Below, piece after piece: positions 6,034 to 43,732 of a stretch of DNA of 64,000 nt. The notes under the pieces are model-generated. The model searched no databases and was not told where the DNA came from. It saw only the letters and a list, made by a program, of their open reading frames with translations. The position numbers and the translations under genes are program-made. The stretch is from positions 14,524 to 78,523 of IMG/VR virus record IMGVR_UViG_3300045988_133226; one strand, given 5' to 3'. Each line of letters begins with the position of its first letter. Within the stretch, counting starts at the first letter, position 1. Origin of the DNA: a virus.

Positions 6034-6786
6034 ATGAAGTACAAAGAACTTATTATGACAGAACAATCTACTGGAAAGAAAACGGTGCTTTATGAGAATG
6101 AAGAGTTCAAGAACTTTGATTATCTAAGTAATCTTATGATGAAGTATGGGTATAGCGAGAATGATTATGAAAACCTTAATGATGATATTATGAGTGGAAT
6201 TGATCACTTTGATGTTATGGAATATGGAAACACAATCGAAACACTTTTATTTGAATATATTAAATATCCTGAGTGCTTTGAGATCCATAAGATTCCTGAA
6301 ATGCCTGATGGATTTACAAAAATCACTTATCATGGTTATACAATCAAATTAAATCAATATAACTGTGATTGGTACTACGGGAAGAGTTCTGACGGAAGTT
6401 TATGTGTGACAAGCACTAAGTACGATTGGAAAAAATACGACAAGATCAAGATACTAGTACAACGTGATTATTACGGAAAATTTGAAGAAGAATGGTGGAA
6501 TATTGTTGACGACAACGGAAATCTTATAGTAAAAATCATGGATGATGATATGGAAAAAGCTGTCGCAGATATTAAAGATAATCGTGATCATGCAATGGAT
6601 TTTGAAGATTGGCTATTATCAACCGATGCAGAAAAGTGGGACGTTGAATGGACTCAAGAAAATTATGATAAAGATAGGGCAGATGAGATTATCAGAAATG
6701 CTTATAATGACTACCTTAATATGCACTGGAAATATTCATGGTTGGTTAGAATAGTAGCGGAAAATATGATCAAGAAGGGAATGTAG
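6034..6786 (+). CDS. hypothetical protein
   Basis: ATG 6034 after GGTGGaaatt; follows a 300-nt non-coding gap containing a TATAAT hexamer. Confidence 0.5.
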   Translation: MKYKELIMTEQSTGKKTVLYENEEFKNFDYLSNLMMKYGYSENDYENLNDDIMSGIDHFDVMEYGNTIETLLFEYIKYPECFEIHKIPEMPDGFTKITYHGYTIKLNQYNCDWYYGKSSDGSLCVTSTKYDWKKYDKIKILVQRDYYGKFEEEWWNIVDDNGNLIVKIMDDDMEKAVADIKDNRDHAMDFEDWLLSTDAEKWDVEWTQENYDKDRADEIIRNAYNDYLNMHWKYSWLVRIVAENMIKKGM

Positions 6787-6796
6787 GTGGTAAATT

Positions 6797-7075
6797 ATGT
6801 TTGATTATGAAAGAAAAGAATTTGAAAAGAATGTGGAAATTTTAATGGAAGATCGTTGTACACGAAAAGAAGCGGAACGATTGTTAAAAAATAGCACAGT
6901 AGTATATGAATTGAAAGATTTTACAGAACATTTTGGTCAGTTTATGGAAGATTGGCAAGAAGACAAGGAAGGAATTGAAGCATATAAGAAGATGCTTGAA
7001 ACTAAAAAACCGATGAGTGGATATAGTTTTGTAGAATATAATGGAAAAGAATATTTGATTAATTATTGTTTATAG
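6797..7075 (+). CDS. hypothetical protein
   Basis: RBS GTAGGTGGtaaattATG. Confidence 0.5.
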   Translation: MFDYERKEFEKNVEILMEDRCTRKEAERLLKNSTVVYELKDFTEHFGQFMEDWQEDKEGIEAYKKMLETKKPMSGYSFVEYNGKEYLINYCL

Positions 7076-17356: not shown

Positions 17357-18307
17357 ATGGCAGCAACACAGTTTGAAGTTATTGAAACAGTAAACAATAA
17401 TAACGCAGAAGAATCTGAAACAAAGATTAAAAGACGCAAGGACGGAAGTCCTAAATGGACTCGATCTAACAAACAAAAAGGCGTATCATCTTTAGTGTAT
17501 CCGATTAAGAACAGAGAAAAATTTGCAGCCTTTAATGCATATTTTAGAGATCAGATTGATAAATCATATACAGAGTACAAACGATATGTAGCTGCTAGAA
17601 ATAATCTTTTGGTTGCAGTTGGAAATAATACAGCGTATCGTATTTCTGATATTGTTAGACTTAAATGGGGTGATTTATTAGACGATAAGACTCGTAAACA
17701 GGAAAAGAAAACAAAGAAATTCAGAACTGTATACTTTAATGATTTGGTAACTGAAGCAGTGGACATTTTCTTTGAAGCCGTTGCAGGAACTAAATATGAT
17801 GTCAAGATTGATGGCGAAGTGCCAATGGATGATTATGTTTTCGGAACATGTAAATCTGGCTCAGGACACATGACTGAAGCAAATGCCTTGGACTTTGTTA
17901 AAAAAGGTGCTAAAGCAGTCGGAATTGAGGATAACATTGGCACACATACATTGAGAAAAAACTTTGTATATTGGACACTTGTTGATCATAAGGACGACCA
18001 GAACGTATTGTATACGCTTATGAGATTACTGAATCATAGCAGTCCTGCAATGACGTTTTTATATGCTACAATTACAGAAGAGGAAACTCATGTATTGTTT
18101 GATGATATTGCTCAGACATATAAGGATATTATCAGCGGAGCATTTAACGGATTAAAGGAAAATGTTATTAATGTGAGTTATGATAGAGTTATGGAGATTA
18201 TCAAGTGTGCTTATGAGACAGGGAAAGATGATTCAGATAAAGACGATGGAGTGCATGAGGATAATATGCAGGCATTAAAAGAGTTGTTGGAAGGAGTTAT
18301 TTTATGA
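17357..18307 (+). CDS. tyrosine site-specific recombinase (integrase / Xer-like)
   Basis: box I RISDIVRLKWGDL, box II HTLRKNFVYWTL, LLNHSSPAMTFLYA with catalytic Tyr (R...HxxR...H...Y); RBS AGAGAGGAGagattatcATG. Confidence 0.65.
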   Translation: MAATQFEVIETVNNNNAEESETKIKRRKDGSPKWTRSNKQKGVSSLVYPIKNREKFAAFNAYFRDQIDKSYTEYKRYVAARNNLLVAVGNNTAYRISDIVRLKWGDLLDDKTRKQEKKTKKFRTVYFNDLVTEAVDIFFEAVAGTKYDVKIDGEVPMDDYVFGTCKSGSGHMTEANALDFVKKGAKAVGIEDNIGTHTLRKNFVYWTLVDHKDDQNVLYTLMRLLNHSSPAMTFLYATITEEETHVLFDDIAQTYKDIISGAFNGLKENVINVSYDRVMEIIKCAYETGKDDSDKDDGVHEDNMQALKELLEGVIL

Positions 18308-19463: not shown

Positions 19464-19492
19464 TTGACAGGGTGCAAAAAGTATGGTATATT
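19464..19492 (+). promoter_or_regulatory. sigma-70-like promoter TTGACA-N17-TATATT with extended -10 (TGgTATATT); -35 lies inside the palindrome TTGCACCtattgacaGGGTGCAA
   Basis: -35 at 19464-19469, 17-nt spacer, -10 at 19487-19492; the inverted repeat 19455-19477 overlapping the -35 is operator-like. Confidence 0.45.
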
Positions 19493-19542
19493 TAATTCAT
19501 GAAAACAAAAAATGCAACTGGGGAAAGTTGAGGGACGTAAAA

Positions 19543-19992
19543 ATGAACGGATATACTAACAAAGAAAGAAAAGGAAACGATAACAGAAAAAGAAAAGAAT
19601 ATGTATATGGCAAATATCAAAATCCTCAAGTTTGGGGAATATATTTTGCAGATTTGCCGAAAATTGAAGGTAGTCACATCTTGCATGGGAAAAGACCAGT
19701 CATCGTATATTCTAATAATATTTGTAATAATACGAGCACCGAGATTAACGTGTATCCAATTACAAAAAAATTAAGGAACTGGATACCGACACATGTGACC
19801 ATTTATCCAAATACCAGTAATGGATTAAAAATGGTATCACAGGTGTATTTAGAGCAAGGAAGAACAATTCCAAAGAATAATCTTTTAGAGTATTGGGGAA
19901 GAATATCTGATCTATCTTTAATGTTAAAAATAGGACATGGCATTTTAATACAAAACGGCATGTTATCGTACATGAATGCAATGGCATCCTAG
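19543..19992 (+). CDS. MazF/PemK-fold protein (possible mRNA-interferase toxin-like)
   Basis: VWGIYFADLPKIEGSHILHGKRPVIVYSNNI...INVYPITKK resembles the PemK/MazF core (G.E..G.RP.vV...); start taken at ATG 19543 (GAGGGAcgtaaaaATG); the ORF-track start at 19483 overlaps the promoter. Confidence 0.4.
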   Translation: MNGYTNKERKGNDNRKRKEYVYGKYQNPQVWGIYFADLPKIEGSHILHGKRPVIVYSNNICNNTSTEINVYPITKKLRNWIPTHVTIYPNTSNGLKMVSQVYLEQGRTIPKNNLLEYWGRISDLSLMLKIGHGILIQNGMLSYMNAMAS

Positions 19993-27183: not shown

Positions 27184-27780
27184 ATGGACGTTAATAAATT
27201 ATTGGTTGTCGTCGATATGCAGAATGATTTCATCGACGGAAGCCTTGGAACCAAAGAAGCACAGGAAATTGTTCCCAAAGTAATTGAGAAAATTAAAAAT
27301 TTTGATGGCATTATTGTTGCAACAATGGACACACACGATGAAAATTATTTATCTACACAGGAAGGAAAGAATCTTCCAGTAAAGCATTGCATCTGCGGAG
27401 AAGATGGATGGCATTTAAATGAAGAAGTTAGAAAGGCATTATTATCGTCAGAGATGTTTTGTCGCAATGACAAGCAAGAAAATGCTATTTGGCTTCTTGA
27501 GAACTATTGTAAAGAAACATTTGGGTCATTAGAACTTATGGACGATTGTTCTGATGAATTCGGTGAAGATGGTCGGTCTCATCCAGAAGATGTTGAAATT
27601 ACCTTAATTGGTCTTTGTACAGATATTTGTGTAATCTCAAATGCAATGTTGCTAAAAGCAGCACTACCAAAAGCAAAGATTATTGTAGATGCTTCCTGCT
27701 GTGCAGGAGTGACGCCAGAGAGTCACAAGAATGCACTTGAAGCAATGAAAATGTGTCAAATTGAAATAATTAATGAATAA
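27184..27780 (+). CDS. pncA: isochorismatase-family cysteine hydrolase, nicotinamidase-like
   Basis: VVVDMQNDF (catalytic Asp), LPVKHCICGEDGW (PncA-type W-P-x-HC-x-G motif), GLCTDICV (catalytic Cys); RBS GGAAGGAGaaaacaATG. Confidence 0.7.
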   Translation: MDVNKLLVVVDMQNDFIDGSLGTKEAQEIVPKVIEKIKNFDGIIVATMDTHDENYLSTQEGKNLPVKHCICGEDGWHLNEEVRKALLSSEMFCRNDKQENAIWLLENYCKETFGSLELMDDCSDEFGEDGRSHPEDVEITLIGLCTDICVISNAMLLKAALPKAKIIVDASCCAGVTPESHKNALEAMKMCQIEIINE

Positions 27781-27794
27781 GGGGGTGATAAAGA

Positions 27795-28631
27795 ATGATT
27801 AGTATTAATGGAGTCCCAGTTGTTCCAGAATCTTTTCCAGATGGAACGCAAAAAATTGATTTTTCGTTAGGCGTGATATCTCAAGAAATCATAGAAAACA
27901 AGACAGTGTATATCACATGGTTATATGAGTCAGATCAAGAGTTATTTTCTTTGTTGTGTATTTCTAAAAATATTAAAGAACATTTTCCGTGGTTACAACA
28001 AGCATTAGTGATGCCGTATATACCAAATGCAAGATTTGACAGAGTAAAAGAGCCAAGCGAATGCTTTACATTAAAATATTTTGCAGAAATTATTAATAGT
28101 CTTGGATTTGTAAGAGTTATTGTAACTGATCCACATTCCGATGTATCTACTGCATTGATTGATCATGTAGAAGTAATCCGTGGAGCATCATATATTACAC
28201 AAACTTGTAGCAAAGTCCTTAAAGCAGAACCATCAAGAAATCTCGTAATTTATTTCCCAGATAGCGGGTCACTAAAAAGATATTCTGAATTTGTATCAGA
28301 TGATTATCCGATTGTCTATGGAATTAAAAATCGTGATTGGAAGACAGGAGAAATTCTTGGTATTGAGATTCATGGAGATACAGATAAATTAGATGAGAAT
28401 ACAGCAATTCTAATGATTGATGATATTTGTAGTAAGGGTGGCACATTCTATTATGGATCAAAAGAATTAAACAAATACGGTTGTAAAGATATGTATTTAT
28501 ATGTTAGTCACTGTGAAAATACAATTCTTGATGGCGAATTATTAAAGGAAGATAGTTTGTTTAAAAAAGTGTATACGACACGTAGTATTTTTACAAAAGA
28601 GCATGAGAAAGTTGAGGTGTTAGATTTATGA
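27795..28631 (+). CDS. ribose-phosphate pyrophosphokinase (Prs)-like type I phosphoribosyltransferase-fold protein
   Basis: PRPP/ribose-phosphate binding loop MIDDICSKGGT (compare DDxxDTGGT of Prs); RBS tAAGGGGGTGataaagaATG. Confidence 0.65.
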   Translation: MISINGVPVVPESFPDGTQKIDFSLGVISQEIIENKTVYITWLYESDQELFSLLCISKNIKEHFPWLQQALVMPYIPNARFDRVKEPSECFTLKYFAEIINSLGFVRVIVTDPHSDVSTALIDHVEVIRGASYITQTCSKVLKAEPSRNLVIYFPDSGSLKRYSEFVSDDYPIVYGIKNRDWKTGEILGIEIHGDTDKLDENTAILMIDDICSKGGTFYYGSKELNKYGCKDMYLYVSHCENTILDGELLKEDSLFKKVYTTRSIFTKEHEKVEVLDL

Positions 28632-30097
28632 AACAGACAAACCCAATGTTATTAATTGATTTTTACAAAGCAGTTCATGCTGAAATGTTACCAAAAGGTA
28701 TTACAAAATCTGTTTCTTATTTTACTCCACGTATGAGCAGAGTAAAACGATGGAATGAAGTAGCCATGTTTGGATTACAAGGATTCATTAAAGAGTATTT
28801 GGTCGATTATTTTAATGAGTATTTTTTCTTTGAATATAAAAACAAAGCAATTGGTACTTATAAGACAGTAATGGATGCAACTCTTGGAGAAGGTACATAT
28901 GGATTACAGAAAATCGAAGATTTATATGATCTTGGCTATCTTCCAATTGAGATTAAGGCTCTTCCTGAAGGAACTTTAGTACCAATGCATGTGCCGATGT
29001 TTAGTATTGAGAATACACATAAAGATTTTGCATGGTTGCCACAGGCATTAGAAAGCTTAATTTCCGCAGAAATGTGGCATCCGATGATTGCTGCAACTGT
29101 TGGACATACATACAGACAGATTGTTAACAAGTTTTATGAAATGACTTGTGATGATGATATTCCAAAATCTAAGGCATTAGGGGCTTTCGATTTTCGTGGC
29201 GAAGAATGTTTACAGTCTGCGATTAAAGCAGGAGCAGGATGGTGTTTATCATTCTTAAATACAGCTACGGTTCCAACAATTTCATATTTAGAGAGAAATT
29301 ATAATTGTGATTGTACGAAAGAACCAGTTGCTTTTGGTAGTCCGTCAACGGAACATGCAGTAGTTTGTAGCAATTATGCAATTGATGGTGATGAAGAGAC
29401 TTTAATCAAAAGATTGCTAACAGAGATTTACCCAAATACAAGTTTTTCTGCGGTATTGGATTCATATGATTATTGGAATGTCGTAGAAAATATTCTTCCA
29501 AAGCTTAAAAATGAGATTATGAATCACAACGGATGTCTTCTTGCCAGAGGTGACTCAGGAGATTGTGTAGACGTAGTAACCAGAACAGTATTCAAATTAT
29601 GGGAAGAGTTTGGTGGAACTACAAATACCAAAGGATATAAAGTATTAGATCCTCATGTAAAAGCAATTTACGGAGATTCAATTACAGTGCAGAGATGTGA
29701 GCAGATTTATGACATCTTAGAGAAAAATGGATTCGCAGCAAACAATGTTGCACTTGGCGTTGGATCATTCTCATTCCAGTGCATCGAAGAAGATGGAGTT
29801 TTAAAACCATTTACAAGAGATACATTTAGCAGTTGTATTAAAGCAACGTATTGTGAGATTGATGGCAAACCATATCCAATTTTCAAGAATCCAAAAGATG
29901 GCGGATTTAAGAAATCTCAGAGAGGTTTATGTCATGTCTATACAGGATCAGACGGTAAATTGACATTTAAAGATGGATATACTTCAGAAAATCTTCCAAT
30001 GAATAACCTGCTTGAGACAGTATTTAGAGATGGCAAATTGGTAAAAGAACAGTCATTACAGGAGATTAGAAGAGTATTAAATGAAGGAGAATTTTAA
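28628..30097 (+). CDS. nicotinamide phosphoribosyltransferase (NAMPT/NadV) family protein
   Basis: LDSYDYWN, ARGDSGD, KGYKVLDPHVKAIYGDS and FKNPKDGGFKKSQRG run parallel to DSYDIYN / RPDSGN / KGYKLLPPYLRVIQGDG / FKDPVADPNKRSKKG of NAMPT enzymes; ATGA overlap with the upstream gene. Confidence 0.7.
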   Translation: MKQTNPMLLIDFYKAVHAEMLPKGITKSVSYFTPRMSRVKRWNEVAMFGLQGFIKEYLVDYFNEYFFFEYKNKAIGTYKTVMDATLGEGTYGLQKIEDLYDLGYLPIEIKALPEGTLVPMHVPMFSIENTHKDFAWLPQALESLISAEMWHPMIAATVGHTYRQIVNKFYEMTCDDDIPKSKALGAFDFRGEECLQSAIKAGAGWCLSFLNTATVPTISYLERNYNCDCTKEPVAFGSPSTEHAVVCSNYAIDGDEETLIKRLLTEIYPNTSFSAVLDSYDYWNVVENILPKLKNEIMNHNGCLLARGDSGDCVDVVTRTVFKLWEEFGGTTNTKGYKVLDPHVKAIYGDSITVQRCEQIYDILEKNGFAANNVALGVGSFSFQCIEEDGVLKPFTRDTFSSCIKATYCEIDGKPYPIFKNPKDGGFKKSQRGLCHVYTGSDGKLTFKDGYTSENLPMNNLLETVFRDGKLVKEQSLQEIRRVLNEGEF

Positions 30098-30114
30098 GAG
30101 AGGAGATATAAAAC

Positions 30115-38203: not shown

Positions 38204-38431
38204 GGTGCAAGGTATTAAATGAGAAGATTAATTTGGTATATAAGATCTTGTTTTTGTAAGCATGATTGGGAGTTAATATTTGATACCCGCTACGAAGAAG
38301 AATCTTATGGTAAATGGTACGACATTATTACAACTAAAGGTAGGCAAAAGGTTTATCGTTGTAAAAAATGTGGTTGCGAAAAAAGATATAGAACGTAAAA
38401 TCTGAGTTTGATGTAAAGTGAGGTGATTAAG

Positions 38432-38752
38432 ATGGGACCCAATATTAATTTTGCAATTGCATATGCGATAGGATGTCTTATTGTTGAAGTTATTGTGATT
38501 CTAAGATATGAAAAAAAGATAGATAAATTAAGGGAATCGAATAGAAGACTGATTCTTGATAATATATCGTACAGAGCTGTTTTAAGCGTAACGCCAAACA
38601 CTACATATAATAAGGAAGAAACTCGTTCAGATGTTAAGGACGCAGTAAAGTATGCAATGAAGAAAAGTCATCCAGATAATGGTGGCAGCGCAGATGATTT
38701 TAGAAAATTCAGAGAGTTATATGAAGAAATGGAAGGTAAGACTCATGAGTAA
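38432..38752 (+). CDS. membrane protein with C-terminal J-domain-like segment (HPD motif)
   Basis: ATG 38432 after GTGAGGTGattaag; N-terminal TM helix; VKDAVKYAMKKSHPDNGGSADDFRKFRELYEEM resembles a DnaJ J-domain helix II-III with the HPD tripeptide. Confidence 0.35.
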   Translation: MGPNINFAIAYAIGCLIVEVIVILRYEKKIDKLRESNRRLILDNISYRAVLSVTPNTTYNKEETRSDVKDAVKYAMKKSHPDNGGSADDFRKFRELYEEMEGKTHE

Positions 38753-38933
38753 ACAAGACTCATTAAAGTTTCTGCAAAGTCTGATTGATGAAATTAGAAA
38801 CGGTTTAACAAAAAAAGATATTGAGCGAGGTCAGAAGTTGATGGAGAAAATAGAAAAAGAAGAACCAAAAGAGGTTGAAAATAGTGATGGGTATTGGGAA
38901 TTTATAATGCCAGATGGTAAAGGAGTGAAGTAG
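38743..38933 (+). CDS. hypothetical small protein
   Basis: ATG 38743 after GAAGGtaagactc; the ORF-track start at 38679 overlaps the upstream gene. Confidence 0.35.
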
Positions 38934-38935
38934 AT

Positions 38936-40564
38936 ATGGCTAAAAAACAAAATAAAAACACGATGCAGATCAATAGAAAAATTACTTTAATTCCAGTTGC
39001 AAGTGACAATGATGGTTGGAAGAAGAAGATGAATATATATCTTGAAAAATTTTATTTTGACAAGAAAATTAAAGCCAAAGAAAGACAAATCAAAAATACG
39101 AGTAAACCAGAAAGAAAAGAAGAATACAAACAGCAGCTTACAGAATATAAAAAGCAACAAGAACAGTTCTTAAATGGTGAGCTTGAAGATTATACAAAGC
39201 AGATGGTTATGAGTTATACATATGATTTGGTAAGAGACTGTATGGAAAGTGAAGCAAGACAGAAGAATTTCATAATGTCTTATATGTTCTCAGAGATGAT
39301 CAGAGAAAAGGTCTGCTACTTAAAAAACAAGAAAGAAAAGGAAAAATGGGTAAATGACAATATCAATGTTGCATTTAGAGTTAAAGGATCACCAAAGGGA
39401 AGTATCTTTGACGATGTTGAGATTTATAGTCCATTAAGAGCATTGAGTATTCAGGGATATACTCAGGAATTAAAGGGGAGAGTTAAGAAATTCGCCACTG
39501 ATGGTGGGTTAGATGGGAAGTTGGCAGTCGATAATTATAAATTAGATTCGCCATTTCATATGTCAAAGCAAGGATTTGATATTGTTCATGAATATGAAGA
39601 CTTGACAGAGCTTAAAAAGAATATTGGTAAATCAAGTTGTGAAATATATGTGAATCTTGGCAACGGTGGCGTTCCTACATTCGCAAGATTCCAATTAGAT
39701 TTTGGGCATAAAGGAAATCGAGAAGAGTTAATTTCTACAATTACAAAAGTATTTACTGGTGAATATAAAGTATGCGGAAGTTCAATTCAGATTAATAAAA
39801 AGAATAAGATTATATTAAATCTTGGACTTGAAATTCCAAAAAGACTTACTGAATTAGATGAAAACACGGTAGTTGGAGTCGATCTTGGGTTAGCAGTTCT
39901 AGCTGTATGCTCTTTAAATAATAATCAGTATAAGAAAGAGTATATTGGTGACGGAGAAGCTTTTGTAAAACAGCGAGGCAAAATTCAAAAAGAAAAACAG
40001 AGATTACAAAAAGCATTAAAACTTTCAAAGGGTGGACATGGAAGAAAAAGAAAAATGTTAGCCTTAGAAAGATTCAAGGAAAGAGAAGCAAATTTTGTAA
40101 ATACTTATTGTCATAGAATCAGTAAAAAAGTTGTTGAATATGCACTTAAGAATAATGCCAAATATATCAATATTGAGAATTTAAAAGGATATGATTCTAG
40201 TAAATTTATTCTGAGAAATTGGAGTTTTTACCAGCTTCAGCAAGATATTACATATAAAGCAGAAAGATATGGTATTGAAGTAAGAAAAATCAATCCTGCA
40301 TTTACTTCTCAAGTATGTAGTTTCTGTGGACATTGGGAATCTGGACAGAGAATAAATCAGAAAACTTTTAAATGCGGGAATCCAAATTGCAAGAGTCATA
40401 ATCTTAAATTTTTTAACGCTGATTATAATGCTGCAAGAAATATTGCAATGTCAACATTATTTACGAGTGATAAATATAAGTTCGGAGAAGAATCTTTGCA
40501 AAAGGCAGCAGACTATTACGGAATTGACTTAGAAATTGATTCTGACGATCAAGAAATTGCTTAA
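38936..40564 (+). CDS. compact type V CRISPR effector-like RuvC nuclease (Cas12f/TnpB-like, 542 aa)
   Basis: RuvC-I TVVGVDLGLAVLA (Asp316, nt 39881-39883); RuvC-II KYINIENLKG (Glu414, nt 40175-40177); INPAFTSQVCSFCGH...CGNPNC zinc finger; RuvC-III FFNADYNAARNIA (Asp496, nt 40421-40423); RBS AAAGGAGtgaagtagatATG; followed by CRISPR mini-arrays on the same strand. Confidence 0.75.
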   Translation: MAKKQNKNTMQINRKITLIPVASDNDGWKKKMNIYLEKFYFDKKIKAKERQIKNTSKPERKEEYKQQLTEYKKQQEQFLNGELEDYTKQMVMSYTYDLVRDCMESEARQKNFIMSYMFSEMIREKVCYLKNKKEKEKWVNDNINVAFRVKGSPKGSIFDDVEIYSPLRALSIQGYTQELKGRVKKFATDGGLDGKLAVDNYKLDSPFHMSKQGFDIVHEYEDLTELKKNIGKSSCEIYVNLGNGGVPTFARFQLDFGHKGNREELISTITKVFTGEYKVCGSSIQINKKNKIILNLGLEIPKRLTELDENTVVGVDLGLAVLAVCSLNNNQYKKEYIGDGEAFVKQRGKIQKEKQRLQKALKLSKGGHGRKRKMLALERFKEREANFVNTYCHRISKKVVEYALKNNAKYINIENLKGYDSSKFILRNWSFYQLQQDITYKAERYGIEVRKINPAFTSQVCSFCGHWESGQRINQKTFKCGNPNCKSHNLKFFNADYNAARNIAMSTLFTSDKYKFGEESLQKAADYYGIDLEIDSDDQEIA

Positions 40565-40633
40565 ATTATCGACTGTATATGGCATGTTTTGGATGAGGTG
40601 CCGAACTTCATCGATCATAGAATATATGATTAT

Positions 40634-40669
40634 GCCAAAAGTGAGGTGTGAAAATGCACTCACTAAAAT
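40634..40669 (+). ncRNA. conserved hairpin element, copy 1 (GCCAAAAGTGAG-loop-CTCACTAAAAT); candidate array leader or tracr-like RNA
   Basis: one of four copies with an invariant 6-bp stem AGTGAG/CTCACT and a variable 11-13 nt loop, each 23-57 nt upstream of a mini-array. Confidence 0.4.
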
Positions 40670-40725
40670 TTGTGTAATTGAATAAAGCATAAAGTTTTGC
40701 GTTGTATACATAATAAAGATTTGAG

Positions 40726-40827
40726 GTTTTAGAACAATTGAAATTTACACAGATACAAAACAGTGCAGGAATGTTGATACCAGATAGTAATGTTTTAGAA
40801 CCACTAGACATTATATAATCATAAAAT
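40726..40827 (+). CRISPR. CRISPR mini-array 1: 36-nt repeat / 30-nt spacer / 3'-degenerate terminal repeat
   Basis: R1 GTTTTAGAACAATTGAAATTTACACAGATACAAAAC (40726-40761); spacer AGTGCAGGAATGTTGATACCAGATAGTAAT (40762-40791); terminal repeat GTTTTAGAACcactagacatt... keeps only the 5' part. Confidence 0.6.
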
Positions 40828-40994
40828 ATAGTATTAAACAAACATTTACGTAAATATTAAGAATATTTTAGTGTTTACGATAATATATGCAGGCTGATAA
40901 AGCCTGTTGTAGTTGCACAAAGTATTGTGCATGGCACGTTTCGAGAAATATTATCGCCAATATAGTATTTCTGGTCACGGAGTATCGTGACTGT

Positions 40995-41028
40995 GCCAAA
41001 AGTGAGATTATATGATACTCACTAAAAT
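40995..41028 (+). ncRNA. conserved hairpin element, copy 2
   Basis: GCCAAAAGTGAGattatatgataCTCACTAAAAT. Confidence 0.4.
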
Positions 41029-41070
41029 GTATGTTGTTAGGTCTTTATATTGGTCAGTATGGGATTTGAG

Positions 41071-41238
41071 GGTTAAGACCTATCAAAAATAACATACGTA
41101 CGAAACGCATTTATCGGGTCATAAATCAATAACTTTGGTTAAGACCTATCAAAAATAACATACGTACGAAACTTGATTGAATCATCCTTTGAGATGTTAG
41201 GCAGTCAAGACCTATTAAAAAATAAAAGATGTGTTTGG
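41071..41238 (+). CRISPR. CRISPR mini-array 2: two identical 36-nt repeats, two 30-nt spacers, degenerate terminal repeat
   Basis: GGTTAAGACCTATCAAAAATAACATACGTACGAAAC at 41071-41106 and 41137-41172; spacers GCATTTATCGGGTCATAAATCAATAACTTT and TTGATTGAATCATCCTTTGAGATGTTAGGC; terminal repeat AGTCAAGACCTATTAAAAAAT... is 3'-degenerate. Confidence 0.75.
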
Positions 41239-41311
41239 TTAAATTAAAATTGCACATTATGTGTATGGTGTGTTTTGGAGATTATATCTCGTTCATCGAA
41301 TAGATGGATAC

Positions 41312-41346
41312 GCCAAAAGTGAGGTTTGGATAACACTCACTAAAAT
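41312..41346 (+). ncRNA. conserved hairpin element, copy 3
   Basis: GCCAAAAGTGAGgtttggataacaCTCACTAAAAT. Confidence 0.4.
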
Positions 41347-41385
41347 CTATGTGATTATGTAACAAAGTTAGACAAAAGAATTTGG

Positions 41386-41487
41386 GTTTGATACTTATTA
41401 AAAATTACATAGGTACAAAACGTTTGTGTTTTATAGTCATGCAATGAAGCAGATTGATACCTATAAAAATTGTATTTTAATACATGG
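41386..41487 (+). CRISPR. CRISPR mini-array 3: repeat / 30-nt spacer / degenerate repeat
   Basis: GTTTGATACTTATTAAAAATTACATAGGTACAAAAC (41386-41421); spacer GTTTGTGTTTTATAGTCATGCAATGAAGCA; terminal GATTGATACCTATAAAAATTgtattttaatacatgg. Confidence 0.55.
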
Positions 41488-41530
41488 CGTGTTCTGGAGA
41501 ATTTATCTCGCTTATTTATTTGATAAGTAC

Positions 41531-41565
41531 GCCAAAAAGTGAGACCGAGTGGTACTCACTAAAAT
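41531..41565 (+). ncRNA. conserved hairpin element, copy 4
   Basis: GCCAAAAAGTGAGaccgagtggtaCTCACTAAAAT. Confidence 0.4.
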
Positions 41566-41587
41566 CTATGTTAATTGAATATTTGAG

Positions 41588-41689
41588 GTACAAGACCTAG
41601 CAGATTTAACATAGGTACAGAACCCCTCATCTGTAAGGATTTCATCTAACTCAGTACAAGACCTATCAAATTTAACAAAATCAAAAGGA
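41588..41689 (+). CRISPR. CRISPR mini-array 4: repeat / 30-nt spacer / degenerate repeat
   Basis: GTACAAGACCTAGCAGATTTAACATAGGTACAGAAC (41588-41623); spacer CCCTCATCTGTAAGGATTTCATCTAACTCA; terminal GTACAAGACCTATCAAATTTAACAaaatcaaaagga. Confidence 0.6.
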
Positions 41690-41702
41690 AATTAAACGAA
41701 AA

Positions 41703-41869
41703 ATGAAATCAAAACAACAACGTGAACAGGAAATAAAACGATTCTTTGATCGGTTGAGTCCGCAGGAATTGGACGCACTGTTAGAAAGAAATGGAATCAA
41801 TGATAAAGAGTCAAAAGAGGCTCTTTCATATAGAATTATTAAAGAAGAAATTGAGAAAGGAGAGATATA
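41703..41869 (+). CDS. hypothetical small protein (55 aa)
   Basis: ORF below the track cutoff immediately after array 4; weak RBS. Confidence 0.3.
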
Positions 41870-42217
41870 ATGAACCACTTCTTATATATTGAATCACGGG
41901 AAGAAGAGAATACATCCCTCGATTCTAAACGTGTTTTATTAAATGAAGAAAATTACAAACATATTATTTCATCATTAGATCATTATCCACCGACGGCAGA
42001 TGAAGTTAAGAGAGCAATTTGTATTTTGATAGGACGATTGATCTATAGAAGCGTTTGGAATATGGAATCTGATATTGATAGTTTAAATATGAGTTTATCC
42101 CCGCCAAAAGAAATGACGGTTGCAGAAATCGAAAAAGAACTCGGTCATAAAGTAAAAATTGTAGAGGAGAAAGAATGCCAATGGCAAAAAAGAAACAAGG
42201 AATGTCGTTTGAAATGA
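41870..42217 (+). CDS. hypothetical protein
   Basis: RBS GGAGAGatataATG. Confidence 0.45.
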   Translation: MNHFLYIESREEENTSLDSKRVLLNEENYKHIISSLDHYPPTADEVKRAICILIGRLIYRSVWNMESDIDSLNMSLSPPKEMTVAEIEKELGHKVKIVEEKECQWQKRNKECRLK

Positions 42218-42486
42218 TGATGCAAAATATGGAAATTAATCCAAGACAATTGTATCGTCGTAGTTCGTGGAAGAAGACACGAACAACTTATGATTATGTG
42301 TTTATGATGTGCGAAGAAGAATTAAATGAGATTATTCCATTTGATAAAAAATATAAAATGAAACCACTCTTATGTAGAGACCAAAATGGAGTTATAACAT
42401 TGGGATGGTTGCCTACACAAGAGGATATTTTCGCAAATGATTGGGTTGAGCAAGGATGGGATTTTAACAGTAAAAGGAAGAGGTGA
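42175..42486 (+). CDS. hypothetical protein
   Basis: RBS GAGGAGaaagaATG; overlaps the upstream gene by about 40 nt. Confidence 0.4.
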   Translation: MPMAKKKQGMSFEMMMQNMEINPRQLYRRSSWKKTRTTYDYVFMMCEEELNEIIPFDKKYKMKPLLCRDQNGVITLGWLPTQEDIFANDWVEQGWDFNSKRKR

Positions 42487-42494
42487 GTAATTAA

Positions 42495-42779
42495 TTGAAT
42501 TTTATAAAAGCAATGACTGCAATAAAAAAAGACAAAACGACTATAAGAAGAGGCATTTGGGGAAAGGAAAAGTATTTGAAAATTTATTCGTCAGAATTAA
42601 CTAATGTTTATTTTGAGTGTAATGATATGGGTGAATATAAGCCAGATTCAATTATTTTTTTATTTGATAAAGAAAACGCAGAAGTTTGGATACCTCTTGC
42701 GGAAGATGTATATGCAGATGACTGGGAAATATATGTTGAGTCAATTAATAAAGGTGAGCAGATAAAGGAGGAAAAATAA
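42495..42779 (+). CDS. hypothetical protein
   Basis: TTG start after AGGAAGAGGTGAG (or ATG at 42513). Confidence 0.4.
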   Translation: MNFIKAMTAIKKDKTTIRRGIWGKEKYLKIYSSELTNVYFECNDMGEYKPDSIIFLFDKENAEVWIPLAEDVYADDWEIYVESINKGEQIKEEK

Positions 42780-43732
42780 TGAAGTGTTTTTATCATGTTG
42801 ATCAAGACGGAATCGTGTCTGGATTCTACGTCAGAAAAGCTTGTGAACAGCGAGGTTTAGCATTTGAACCAGAGGACTTCCGAAAAATTAATTACGGTAT
42901 GAAATTCCCGTTTCATGACATTGAGCAGGATGAATTTGTGTTTATTGTAGACTACAGTATTGAGCCAGAAGAGATGTGGCAGTTGCTCAGTATTACAAAG
43001 AATGTATTTTGGATCGACCATCATCAGTCTACGATTGAAGCGTATAAAGATTTCAAGTGTGATGTAAAAGGAATCAGAATTACTGGAGCGGGTATTTCAG
43101 GAGCGAATTTGACATGGTTATATTTTAAATATATGTGTGATGAAAATTGGGAGCAAATTGAGAGGACGGATGAGAAAAATGTAAAAAGATTACTCAATAT
43201 ATATAAATATAAAGCAGATTATCCAAAACTGGCAGAATATACAGCCATGTGGGATACATTTTATTTTGGTGAAACGTCAAAACAATTCGTAAAAGCATTT
43301 CACTATGCATTTGAATCGTATGATTTTGATGCGTTAAGTCCATTGCTAAACACGTTAAATAAAGATCAAGGAATTTATGAAGCAGCAAAAATTATTGGTG
43401 ATATGATAGCAGATGGCTTATCAATTATTGAGTATTTAGCAGCAAATGCAGAACAATATCTTAGAGCATATGGTTTTGAAACCATATTTGAGGGACATAA
43501 AGTCTATGCAATCAACAGAGCGTTAATCAATTCTGATTTCTTCGAATCTATTGATGCTTCTAAATACGATATGTTTATCGGTTTTTCATTCAATGGAAGT
43601 ATGTGGGAATATCAGCTACGATCCGCAGAACAAGATAAAGTAAATGTGTATGAGCTTGCTGTGAAATATGGTGGTGGCGGTCATCCAAATGCAGCTGGGT
43701 TCAGATGTGATAAATATGTATTAGGAGTGTGA
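42779..43732 (+). CDS. DHH/DHHA1-family phosphoesterase (NrnA-like nanoRNase / pAp phosphatase-like)
   Basis: motif I HVDQDGIVSGFY, motif III VFWIDHHQST (DHH), DHHA1 motif YGGGGHPNAAGF; 317 aa, typical NrnA size; RBS AAAGGAGGaaaaataATG. Confidence 0.65.
   Translation: MKCFYHVDQDGIVSGFYVRKACEQRGLAFEPEDFRKINYGMKFPFHDIEQDEFVFIVDYSIEPEEMWQLLSITKNVFWIDHHQSTIEAYKDFKCDVKGIRITGAGISGANLTWLYFKYMCDENWEQIERTDEKNVKRLLNIYKYKADYPKLAEYTAMWDTFYFGETSKQFVKAFHYAFESYDFDALSPLLNTLNKDQGIYEAAKIIGDMIADGLSIIEYLAANAEQYLRAYGFETIFEGHKVYAINRALINSDFFESIDASKYDMFIGFSFNGSMWEYQLRSAEQDKVNVYELAVKYGGGGHPNAAGFRCDKYVLGV

Follow-up and report, generated by a model that had tools for sequence, protein, structure and literature searches.

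A phage-borne type V-F1 (Cas12f) CRISPR system with guide-RNA genes probably organised as four tandem, self-contained cassettes

Type V-F1 effectors, represented in our comparison set by Un1Cas12f1/Cas14a, AsCas12f, CnCas12f1, Al3Cas12f/Cas12f-MG119 and uCas, are encoded in loci which, in the cases described, combine one trans-activating CRISPR RNA, or tracrRNA, with one array (PMC13186708; bioRxiv 2023.02.03.527072). In the validated single-guide RNAs (sgRNAs) of Al3Cas12f and Cas12f-MG119 a GUUGGA loop pairs with the UCCAAC end of the repeat, and a second segment, ...ACUCAAAAAAUUCACUUGA, pairs with UCAAGUGAAU (PMC13186708 supplement). Compact phage-borne type V systems of other families are also on record (bioRxiv 2025.01.20.633832; bioRxiv 2026.03.27.714800; Cas14j/k via PMC12607003), among them Cas12p, a distinct and rare family with a GTN protospacer-adjacent motif (PAM) and a thioredoxin cofactor (bioRxiv 2025.01.20.633832). 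Here we analyse 64,000 nucleotides (nt) of the IMG/VR virus record IMGVR_UViG_3300045988_133226 (record positions 14,524-78,523), hereafter the window; all coordinates are window positions and L-numbers (L001, L002 and so on) denote the related loci compared. An earlier note on this DNA had proposed a compact nuclease followed by four separately led mini-arrays, and had set it against phage systems of 700-800 amino acids (aa), a size range which is outdated in view of Cas14j/k (cited in PMC12607003), the Cas12p 'hacker' and phage TranC9. We propose, with a probability of roughly three in four, that the locus is a phage-borne type V-F1 (Cas12f) system in which the guide-RNA genes form four tandem self-contained cassettes.

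The cas12f gene (38936-40564, + strand) encodes a protein of 542 aa, which was assigned by means of Pfam, phmmer against the PDB, AlphaFold/Foldseek and conservation among homologues. Pfam recognises Cas12f1-like_TNB and OrfB_IS605 (PF07282, 67.9 bits; PF01385, 47.6 bits), and the NCBIfam model NF040570 (guided_TnpB), a superfamily-level model that covers Cas12f-like proteins too, scores 160.2 bits for a cut-off of 100; the Cas12f2 model (NF049972) reaches 119.8 bits for a curated cut-off of 450, so the protein is not a Cas12f2. The best phmmer matches in the PDB are Al3Cas12f (9NZO/9NZR, E 1.8e-64) and CnCas12f1 (8HR5, E 5.9e-63), followed by RhCas12f and the entries 8J12/8J3R/8J1J, 7WJU and 8DZJ (labelled AsCas12f by Foldseek), the Cas12f matches spanning E 1e-64 to 1e-41 compared with about 1e-6 for TnpB. 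An AlphaFold model built from 40 homologues (pLDDT, the predicted local distance difference test score, of 87) retrieves Cas12f structures over its full length as the top Foldseek matches (8HR5, E 1.4e-27; 9NZR, E 4.8e-27), with TnpB at 3.5e-12, Cas12p at 2.6e-10 and Cas-lambda at about 1e-8. The 'hacker' Cas12p was thereby rejected as the family of this protein, being distinct and a distant fold match (2.6e-10 versus 1e-27 for Cas12f). The motifs GVDLG (aa 314-318), INIENL (411-416), CSFCG...CGNPNC (461-485) and NADYNAARNIA (494-504) provide the catalytic triad RuvC-I D316, RuvC-II E414 and RuvC-III D496 together with the zinc finger C461/C464/C480/C485, and these seven residues are invariant or at least 90% conserved among the 40 homologues. 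Thus the Cas12f/TnpB-like RuvC nuclease of the earlier note is borne out by sequence, fold, intact triad and zinc finger; its motifs are as it gave them except that RuvC-III starts with N and not D, and the profile and structure searches it had suggested put Cas12f structures far ahead of TnpB. On the basis of the family models, PDB matches, fold and conserved active site, the effector is a member of the already characterised Cas12f1 clade (Al3Cas12f, CnCas12f1, AsCas12f) and presumably active. The family is large, with more than 1000 homologues at E <= 1e-10, many of them on contigs of 90-230 kb, and as a nuclease the protein is a new member rather than a new kind.

The gene is followed by a stretch without any credible open reading frame (ORF; 40565-41702). 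The window has 33% GC and 96 closely packed ORFs, of which 92 lie on the + strand; no other gap in it comes near this length, the second largest measuring 427 nt. Four modules of approximately 350, 325, 240 and 220 nt fill this 1.1 kb. They contain five full repeats of 36 nt (starting at 40726, 41071, 41137, 41386 and 41588), five spacers of 30 nt, and four terminal repeats keeping the 5' half (40792, 41203, 41452 and 41654), and in module 2 two identical repeats carry two spacers. The hairpin GCCAAAAGTGAG-loop-CTCACTAAAAT occurs once in each module and nowhere else in the 64 kb, and a profile of the hairpin core matches in the window at the four module sites alone (E about 1e-12); GTTTTG, GTTTCG, GTTTTG and GTTCTG (GTTYYG) stand 5' of the hairpins of modules 1-4, respectively. 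The exceptional ORF-free stretch among packed genes, the four modules each with GTTYYG, a 36-nt repeat, a 30-nt spacer and a degenerate last repeat, and the two perfect repeats and two spacers of module 2 are therefore present as first described, while the hairpin called invariant does occur in four copies but has one additional A in module 4. Rfam at a permissive E-value returned no family over 38000-43000.

What had been read as a leader with a GTTYYG motif and a hairpin is a predicted complete tracrRNA of the Cas12f type. In 5' to 3' order it consists of a closing stem, GUUYYG (anti-repeat 1), two small hairpins whose stems co-vary between modules, the AGUGAG/CUCACU hairpin, AAAAU and an 11-nt anti-repeat 2; the closing stems of modules 1-4 are GGCAU/AUGCC, GGCAC/GUGCC, GGUGU/ACGCC and GGCGU/ACGCC, respectively. 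Anti-repeat 2 pairs with the middle of the repeat of its own module, and anti-repeat 1 pairs with the final six bases of the repeat, beside the spacer (GUUUCG/CGAAAC in module 2, GUUCUG/CAGAAC in module 4), an interaction that is a pseudoknot in the predicted structure. This layout is the same as that of the validated Al3Cas12f/MG119 sgRNAs. In an alignment of 20 modules from seven phage loci (the window and six related loci) 98.4% of the cells form a standard pair across the 28 proposed pairs of the four helices, and 11 of these pairs show compensatory changes on both sides. None of 500 shuffles equalled the observed values on four measures and one did on a fifth, and sliding the partners by 1-3 columns as a control lowered pairing to 24-54%. 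Within the window, each tracrRNA forms 15-16 of 17 Watson-Crick pairs with its own repeat compared with 11-14 for the repeats of the other modules. Minimum free energy (MFE) folding of modules 4 and 3 recovers the stems and the anti-repeat 2 duplex and leaves the pseudoknot partners unpaired (z = -4.5 and -4.0 versus shuffles), and the fold of module 1 gives z = -3.6. Since two anti-repeat segments co-vary with the repeat of their own module, what had looked like arrays with leaders are cassettes that each combine a tracrRNA and an array; of the 'separately led mini-arrays' the arrays are real, but the 'leader' is the tracrRNA.

All elements of the cassettes lie on the + strand. In module 1 the tracrRNA-like scaffold (40574-40678) comprises the closing stem GGCAT 40581-85/ATGCC 40632-36, anti-repeat 1 GTTTTG at 40586-91, the hairpin AGTGAG 40640-45/CTCACT 40659-64 and anti-repeat 2 at 40668-78, and the array (40719-40827) comprises ATTTGAG at 40719-25, the repeat at 40726-61, the spacer at 40762-91 and the degenerate terminal repeat at 40792-827. 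A GC-rich hairpin, CAGGCTGATAAAGCCTG, at 40890-40906, some 25 nt upstream of the module 2 tracrRNA, is conserved 5' of cassettes of the module-2 and upstream types in L001, L002 and L005-L012; it may act as the terminator of module 1 or form a 5' stem of the tracrRNA. The module 2 scaffold (40921-41037) has GGCAC 40933-37/GTGCC 40993-97, anti-repeat 1 GTTTCG at 40938-43, the hairpin at 41001-23 and anti-repeat 2 at 41027-37, which continues into TTAGGTCTT (41037-45), pairing with the 5' half of the repeat as inverted repeats; its array (41064-41238) has ATTTGAG at 41064-70, the identical repeats at 41071-106 and 41137-172, spacers at 41107-136 and 41173-202, and the degenerate repeat at 41203-238. 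For module 3 the corresponding positions are 41250-41355 for the scaffold, with GGTGT 41267-71/ACGCC 41310-14, anti-repeat 1 GTTTTG at 41272-77, the hairpin at 41318-41 and anti-repeat 2 at 41345-55, and 41379-41487 for the array, with AATTTGG at 41379-85, the repeat at 41386-421, the spacer at 41422-451 and the degenerate repeat at 41452-487. The module 4 scaffold (41479-41574) contains GGCGT 41486-90/ACGCC 41529-33, anti-repeat 1 GTTCTG at 41491-96, the hairpin at 41538-60 and anti-repeat 2 at 41564-74, followed by an array (41581-41689) with ATTTGAG at 41581-87, the repeat at 41588-623, the spacer at 41624-653 and the degenerate repeat at 41654-689.

The arrangement is not restricted to the window. 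L002 shows the four repeat types in an unchanged order, and so does L021, with a Cas12f of only 63% identity; three modules are present in L022, one upstream and three downstream in L004, and in almost every phage locus examined there are 2-4 tracrRNA cores, without exception on the strand of cas12f. In the bacterial relatives L028 and L029, by contrast, a single tracrRNA accompanies one ordinary array. L001 (7990-8260) retains two modules, the second composed of the 5' part of tracrRNA 2, the 3' part of tracrRNA 4 and type-4 repeats, a recombinant with one pseudoknot mismatch (GTTTCG versus CAGAAC). In L004 (8042-8110) a repeat runs straight into the tracrRNA of the next cassette, without a spacer or terminal repeat of its own, and the last cassette also lacks a terminal repeat. 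The spacers are wholly different among the window, L001 and L002, whose Cas12f proteins are 99% identical, while the flanking repeats are retained. Furthermore, a module-2 spacer of L002 matches the cas12f genes of other phages at six loci, always with TTTG on the 5' side: 29 of 30 positions in L053, 28/30 in L022, L023 and L072, 27/30 in L069 and 26/30 in L021. This spacer fits the cas12f of its own locus at only 21 positions out of 30 (23/30 in the window and L001), with the mismatches in the PAM-proximal seed. An L007 spacer considered as a second one directed against cas12f was discarded as too weak (23/30 to the RuvC-III region). The spacer turnover between phages with 99%-identical Cas12f, together with a relative's spacer matching rival phages, demonstrates that the DNA downstream of the nuclease is real CRISPR. 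The L002 spacer shows, at the level of sequence matches, that inter-phage targeting exists; its frequency is not given by a target set enriched in cas12f.

Directly 5' of the first repeat stands ATTTGAG in modules 1, 2 and 4 and AATTTGG in module 3. Although the linkers of the modules otherwise vary in both sequence and length, this motif hardly changes, and it does not occur in the arrays of the bacterial relatives L028 and L029. ATTTGAG/GTTT is the conserved leader-repeat junction of Group-1 type II-A systems and is required for adaptation in S. thermophilus (PMC5382924). By analogy, ATTTGAG in combination with a 36-nt repeat and a 30-nt spacer suggests that type II-A adaptation proteins of the host might serve the arrays of the window; as a counterpoint to this hypothesis, spacers selected by Cas9 would have the PAM on the wrong side for Cas12f.

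With respect to transcription, the distance from anti-repeat 2 to the repeat on the same strand is 47, 33, 30 and 13 nt in modules 1-4, and a scan of the locus detected no terminator-like site on the + strand. The short linker of module 4 and the absence of a + strand terminator in that scan argue for tracrRNA and CRISPR RNA (crRNA) on one transcript, and thus each module probably yields a natural single-guide-like RNA. A promoter-like element, TTGATA-16-TTTAAT (41454-41481), lies inside the degenerate repeat of module 3, ends 4 nt before the tracrRNA stem of module 4 and is conserved in L002 and L021; TTGAGA-18-AATAAA elements were seen in the terminal repeat ahead of module 2 in L021 and L022. 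According to the mechanism that we propose, each cassette would give one RNA, either by read-through from cas12f or by initiation at promoter-like elements in the preceding degenerate repeat, and this RNA would fold in cis into a natural single-guide-like precursor. The precursor would load a Cas12f dimer, leading to double-strand cleavage of DNA that matches the 30-nt spacer and bears a T-rich 5' PAM (TTTG), the most likely targets being competing related phages in co-infected Clostridia, their cas12f genes included. New spacers would presumably come from machinery supplied in trans, as Cas1, Cas2 and Cas4 were not detected in the window ORFs scanned. The inferred parts of this scheme are co-transcription with folding in cis, the promoter-like elements inside terminal repeats, cleavage and its PAM, what the five window spacers target, where new spacers come from, and competition with related phages as the main role. 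It is plausible that diverged cassettes are kept because each guide is then made with its own partner and requires no shared tracrRNA; it is also plausible that divergence would limit deletion by recombination, as L001 illustrates.

Several observations weigh against this proposal. Pairing of tracrRNA with non-cognate repeats is no more than moderately worse than cognate pairing, at 14-15 of 17 pairs, so that orthogonality is not strict. Sigma-70-like promoter matches do not exceed shuffles (12 versus 8.9 +/- 2.6), and a good candidate promoter is present in module-4-type cassettes only, so that we do not firmly claim promoters of their own for the cassettes. The five spacers of the window gave no match in IMG/VR (exact 22-mers, all five) or by blastn against INPHARED, nor did two of them in metagenomes of the Joint Genome Institute (JGI; exact 24-mers); among approximately 100 unique spacers of the family a single one has a clear target, in a target set biased to cas12f neighbourhoods, and the evidence for the PAM is one protospacer family at six related loci with TTTG. 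Finally, more than 20 related IMG/VR contigs with the same flanking genes (L033, L036, L045 at 6560-6900 and L054, among others) have cas12f cut to its first 24 nt (ATGGCTAAGAAACAAAATAAAAAT) and fused to a single remaining cassette, and the system is dispensable, given that cas12f is deleted in many related phages.

The non-cognate pairing also counts in favour of the alternative to which we give most weight while still holding it doubtful, that of canonical trans mechanics, in which a separate tracrRNA and pre-crRNA would be cut by host RNase III to give two guide RNAs and the tandem would reflect duplication of the unit. Known Cas12f systems do use a separate tracrRNA and crRNA; for the second repeat-spacer of module 2, use of the upstream tracrRNA in cis cannot work as it does for the first, and the anti-repeat of this module extends along the greater part of the repeat, so that the two form a long duplex of the kind typically cut by RNase III. 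However, the linker measures 13 nt in module 4 and is reduced to zero in solo cassettes of relatives, leaving no space for a separate promoter or terminator, and therefore both parts would lie on one RNA. Moreover, each tracrRNA co-varies with the adjacent repeat instead of converging with the others on one shared sequence.

The element carrying the cassettes is a phage, since Cas12f is 99% identical to proteins from viral contigs in IMG/VR that are 142 and 167 kb long and phage replication genes lie alongside (genes in the window include those for a polymerase of the DnaE type, a RecJ-like exonuclease, a DnaB-like helicase and Bro/Ant proteins). When 20 kb surrounding the locus were compared by megablast with 50,697 deposited phage genomes, nothing matched; relatives in genome collections come from Clostridia, namely Clostridium sp. 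AF37-5, Anaerotignum and Pseudobutyrivibrio. Domain scans of the window covered 56 ORFs (all those of at least 150 aa and the immediate neighbours of the CRISPR locus) and contained no Cas1, Cas2, Cas4 or TnpA domain; none was found within +/-6 kb of four related loci, and cas9, csn2, cas1 and cas2 were absent from the same two sets. A search of the window for tRNA genes with ARAGORN was negative. Directly downstream of the CRISPR locus are two neighbouring genes for Tad2-like proteins (anti-Thoeris sponges; 42175-42486 and 42495-42779; PF11195, E 4e-8 and 6e-12). A nicotinamide adenine dinucleotide (NAD) gene cluster at 27184-30885, with an isochorismatase-family gene, nicotinamide phosphoribosyltransferase (28628-30097) and NAD synthase (30115-30885), is reminiscent of phage NAD-replenishing counter-defence. 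A tyrosine recombinase of the phage integrase family (17357-18307) and a MazF/PemK-like toxin (19483-19992) share one early region.

An exact scan of IMG/VR for the tracrRNA core gave 71 stretches on about 45 phage contigs and revealed, in addition to cassettes linked to cas12f and their remnants, a compact solo cassette in 32 loci (L030:11100-11340, L031, L038, L040-L043, L088 and others), in which a full tracrRNA is joined through a 13-nt loop to the 3' half of the repeat. It ends with ...ACAGAAU exactly one base before a tRNA-Ser(GCU) gene, the first of a phage tRNA cluster, and lies about 50 kb from cas12f where one contig has both; its anti-repeat 1, AUUCUG, fits the CAGAAU repeat end, another compensatory change. 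In the empty alleles of 14 related loci (among them L101, L102, L104, L107, L113-L115, L117, L118, L121 and L123) the flanks agree with those of filled alleles and the tRNA is identical over its first 27 nt, but the cassette is missing (...ACAAAAATTAT|GTGCATG...), from which it follows that the solo cassette is a precisely bounded insertion of about 170 nt, placed between TTAT and nucleotide 1 of the tRNA. The flank of the would-be protospacer is TTAT in empty and GAAT in filled alleles, and both kinds of allele are found with and without cas12f. A second solo cassette (B2) is located in a tRNA-Leu/tRNA-Gln interval (L031:1437-1700, - strand; L088:1150-1390; site in L030:12200-12260), the B2 site being empty in L040 and L043 (24-26 nt gap). 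The B2 guide CGCTACAATAATAGACGCT matches a different insert at the same site in L030 at 19/19 positions, after ACAGAAC-TTTT; this match is ambiguous, since a repeat-end fragment lies 4 nt upstream and shared ancestry could explain it.

The solo cassettes suggest, by analogy, the logic of TnpB and its omega RNA, in which the guide is the flank and the target the empty site, and hence homing or allele exclusion; another possibility is that the tRNA is simply cut off by RNase P, so that a scaffold without guide is left. Extended to the whole clade, this would make the Cas12f guide cassettes selfish TnpB-like homing or allele-exclusion units with arrays possibly refilled by host type II-A, a reading that we regard as unlikely. 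The first tRNA bases would serve as guide of the solo cassette and Cas12f would cut the empty allele alone in a co-infecting relative, so that the rival would be excluded or the cassette copied in by recombination; arrays linked to cas12f would perhaps be refilled by host type II-A adaptation proteins via ATTTGAG, and the four cassettes of the window would be the CRISPR-array-bearing version of such a unit.

Returning to the proposed guide cassettes aimed at competing phages, their spacers might instead be directed mainly at the bacterial host, at defence genes or the chromosome, for takeover or regulation. Phage CRISPR systems acting against host defence elements are known (PMC11656645), the locus adjoins counter-defence genes (the two Tad2-like and the NAD-salvage genes) and the five window spacers lack a phage match, also when all five were compared by BLAST with the window and 26 related loci and when spacer 1 was searched against the window itself; nevertheless, the sole spacer of the family with a target matches phage cas12f genes, and we consider a predominantly host-directed role quite unlikely. 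It is improbable that some or all of the cassettes are RNA decoys that titrate or redirect Cas12f belonging to rival phages or the host: solitary repeats acting as RNA anti-CRISPRs have been described (PMC11656645), and many relatives have lost cas12f yet keep one cassette and the solo scaffold fused to tRNA-Ser, but in the window the cassettes stand directly behind an intact, catalytically complete cas12f and hold changing 30-nt spacers, as working guides would. An IS200/IS605 TnpB transposon with its omega RNA, or a dispersed non-CRISPR repeat family, is effectively refuted despite the guided_TnpB score and the PHROGs label 'transposase' for the family, because the ORFs scanned contain no TnpA/Y1 transposase domain (the earlier note had named a neighbouring TnpA with IS ends as the sign of such an element), the gene is single-copy in the window and keeps a fixed syntenic position across phages at 60-99% protein identity, the model fits Cas12f far better than TnpB, and the repeats bound variable 30-nt spacers and pair with the adjacent tracrRNA.

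In the literature searched, which did not include Al-Shayeb et al. 2022, we found no description of tandem tracrRNA-array cassettes or of tRNA-fused solo guide cassettes. The earlier suggestion of an undescribed architecture holds to that extent for the multi-cassette layout but not for the effector, whose type is known: this is a known effector family in a new architectural variant. One miniature nuclease with several diverged tracrRNA/repeat pairs offers natural data on which guide positions are free to vary while pairing holds, data of direct use for Cas12f guide engineering and orthogonal multiplexing. In appearance the cassettes are natural genes for single-guide RNAs, intermediate between TnpB's omega RNA and the split tracrRNA/crRNA pair of Cas12, and this bears on the origin of type V CRISPR from transposon nucleases. 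A spacer against a rival cas12f, the frequent loss of cas12f and the filled and empty solo alleles point to CRISPR-on-CRISPR conflict among gut phages, and the type II-A-like leader end provides a testable idea for how a phage without Cas1-Cas2 may renew its spacers.

Compared with known systems, the locus shares with type II-A Group 1 (PMC5382924) the ATTTGAG leader end before a GTTT... repeat, the 36-nt repeat and the 30-nt spacer; it differs in lacking cas9, csn2, cas1 and cas2 among the scanned ORFs, and Cas12f and Cas9 have opposite crRNA polarity and opposite PAM sides. Virus-borne mini-arrays of archaeal viruses and phages (PMC11656645) likewise have 1-2 spacers and show evidence of targeting related viruses, but those use the Cas proteins and repeats of the host, whereas the phage of the window has its own effector and tracrRNAs. 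Cas12j/CasPhi, Cas-lambda (Cas12l), Cas12p and Cas14j/k are also phage-borne single-effector type V systems without adaptation genes, the presumed role of such compact systems being superinfection exclusion or competition. CasPhi and Cas-lambda are larger and need no tracrRNA, in contrast to the 542-aa protein of the window with its tracrRNA-like partners, and CasPhi, Cas-lambda and Cas12p are far more distant by fold than Cas12f. With TnpB and omega RNA of IS200/IS605 the system has in common a small RuvC nuclease and a scaffold and guide contiguous on one transcript 3' of the gene, and the solo cassettes of relatives are alike in that the guide is flanking DNA with filled and empty alleles; in the window, however, neither TnpA (in the scanned ORFs) nor transposon ends were detected, the guides are bounded by repeats and exchanged, and the protein groups with Cas12f. 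The closest agreement is with type V-F1 Cas12f, in fold, size class, triad, zinc finger, 36-nt repeat, absence of adaptation genes from the locus, tracrRNA downstream of the nuclease, pseudoknot on the 3' end of the repeat and second anti-repeat; a 5' PAM rich in T, as most orthologues have, would fit the TTTG beside the one protospacer family. What distinguishes the phage clade from type V-F1 is the presence of 2-4 tandem cassettes, each with its own diverged, co-varying tracrRNA/repeat pair, arrays of 1-4 spacers with an ATTTGAG leader end, and carriers that are phages of 140-170 kb.

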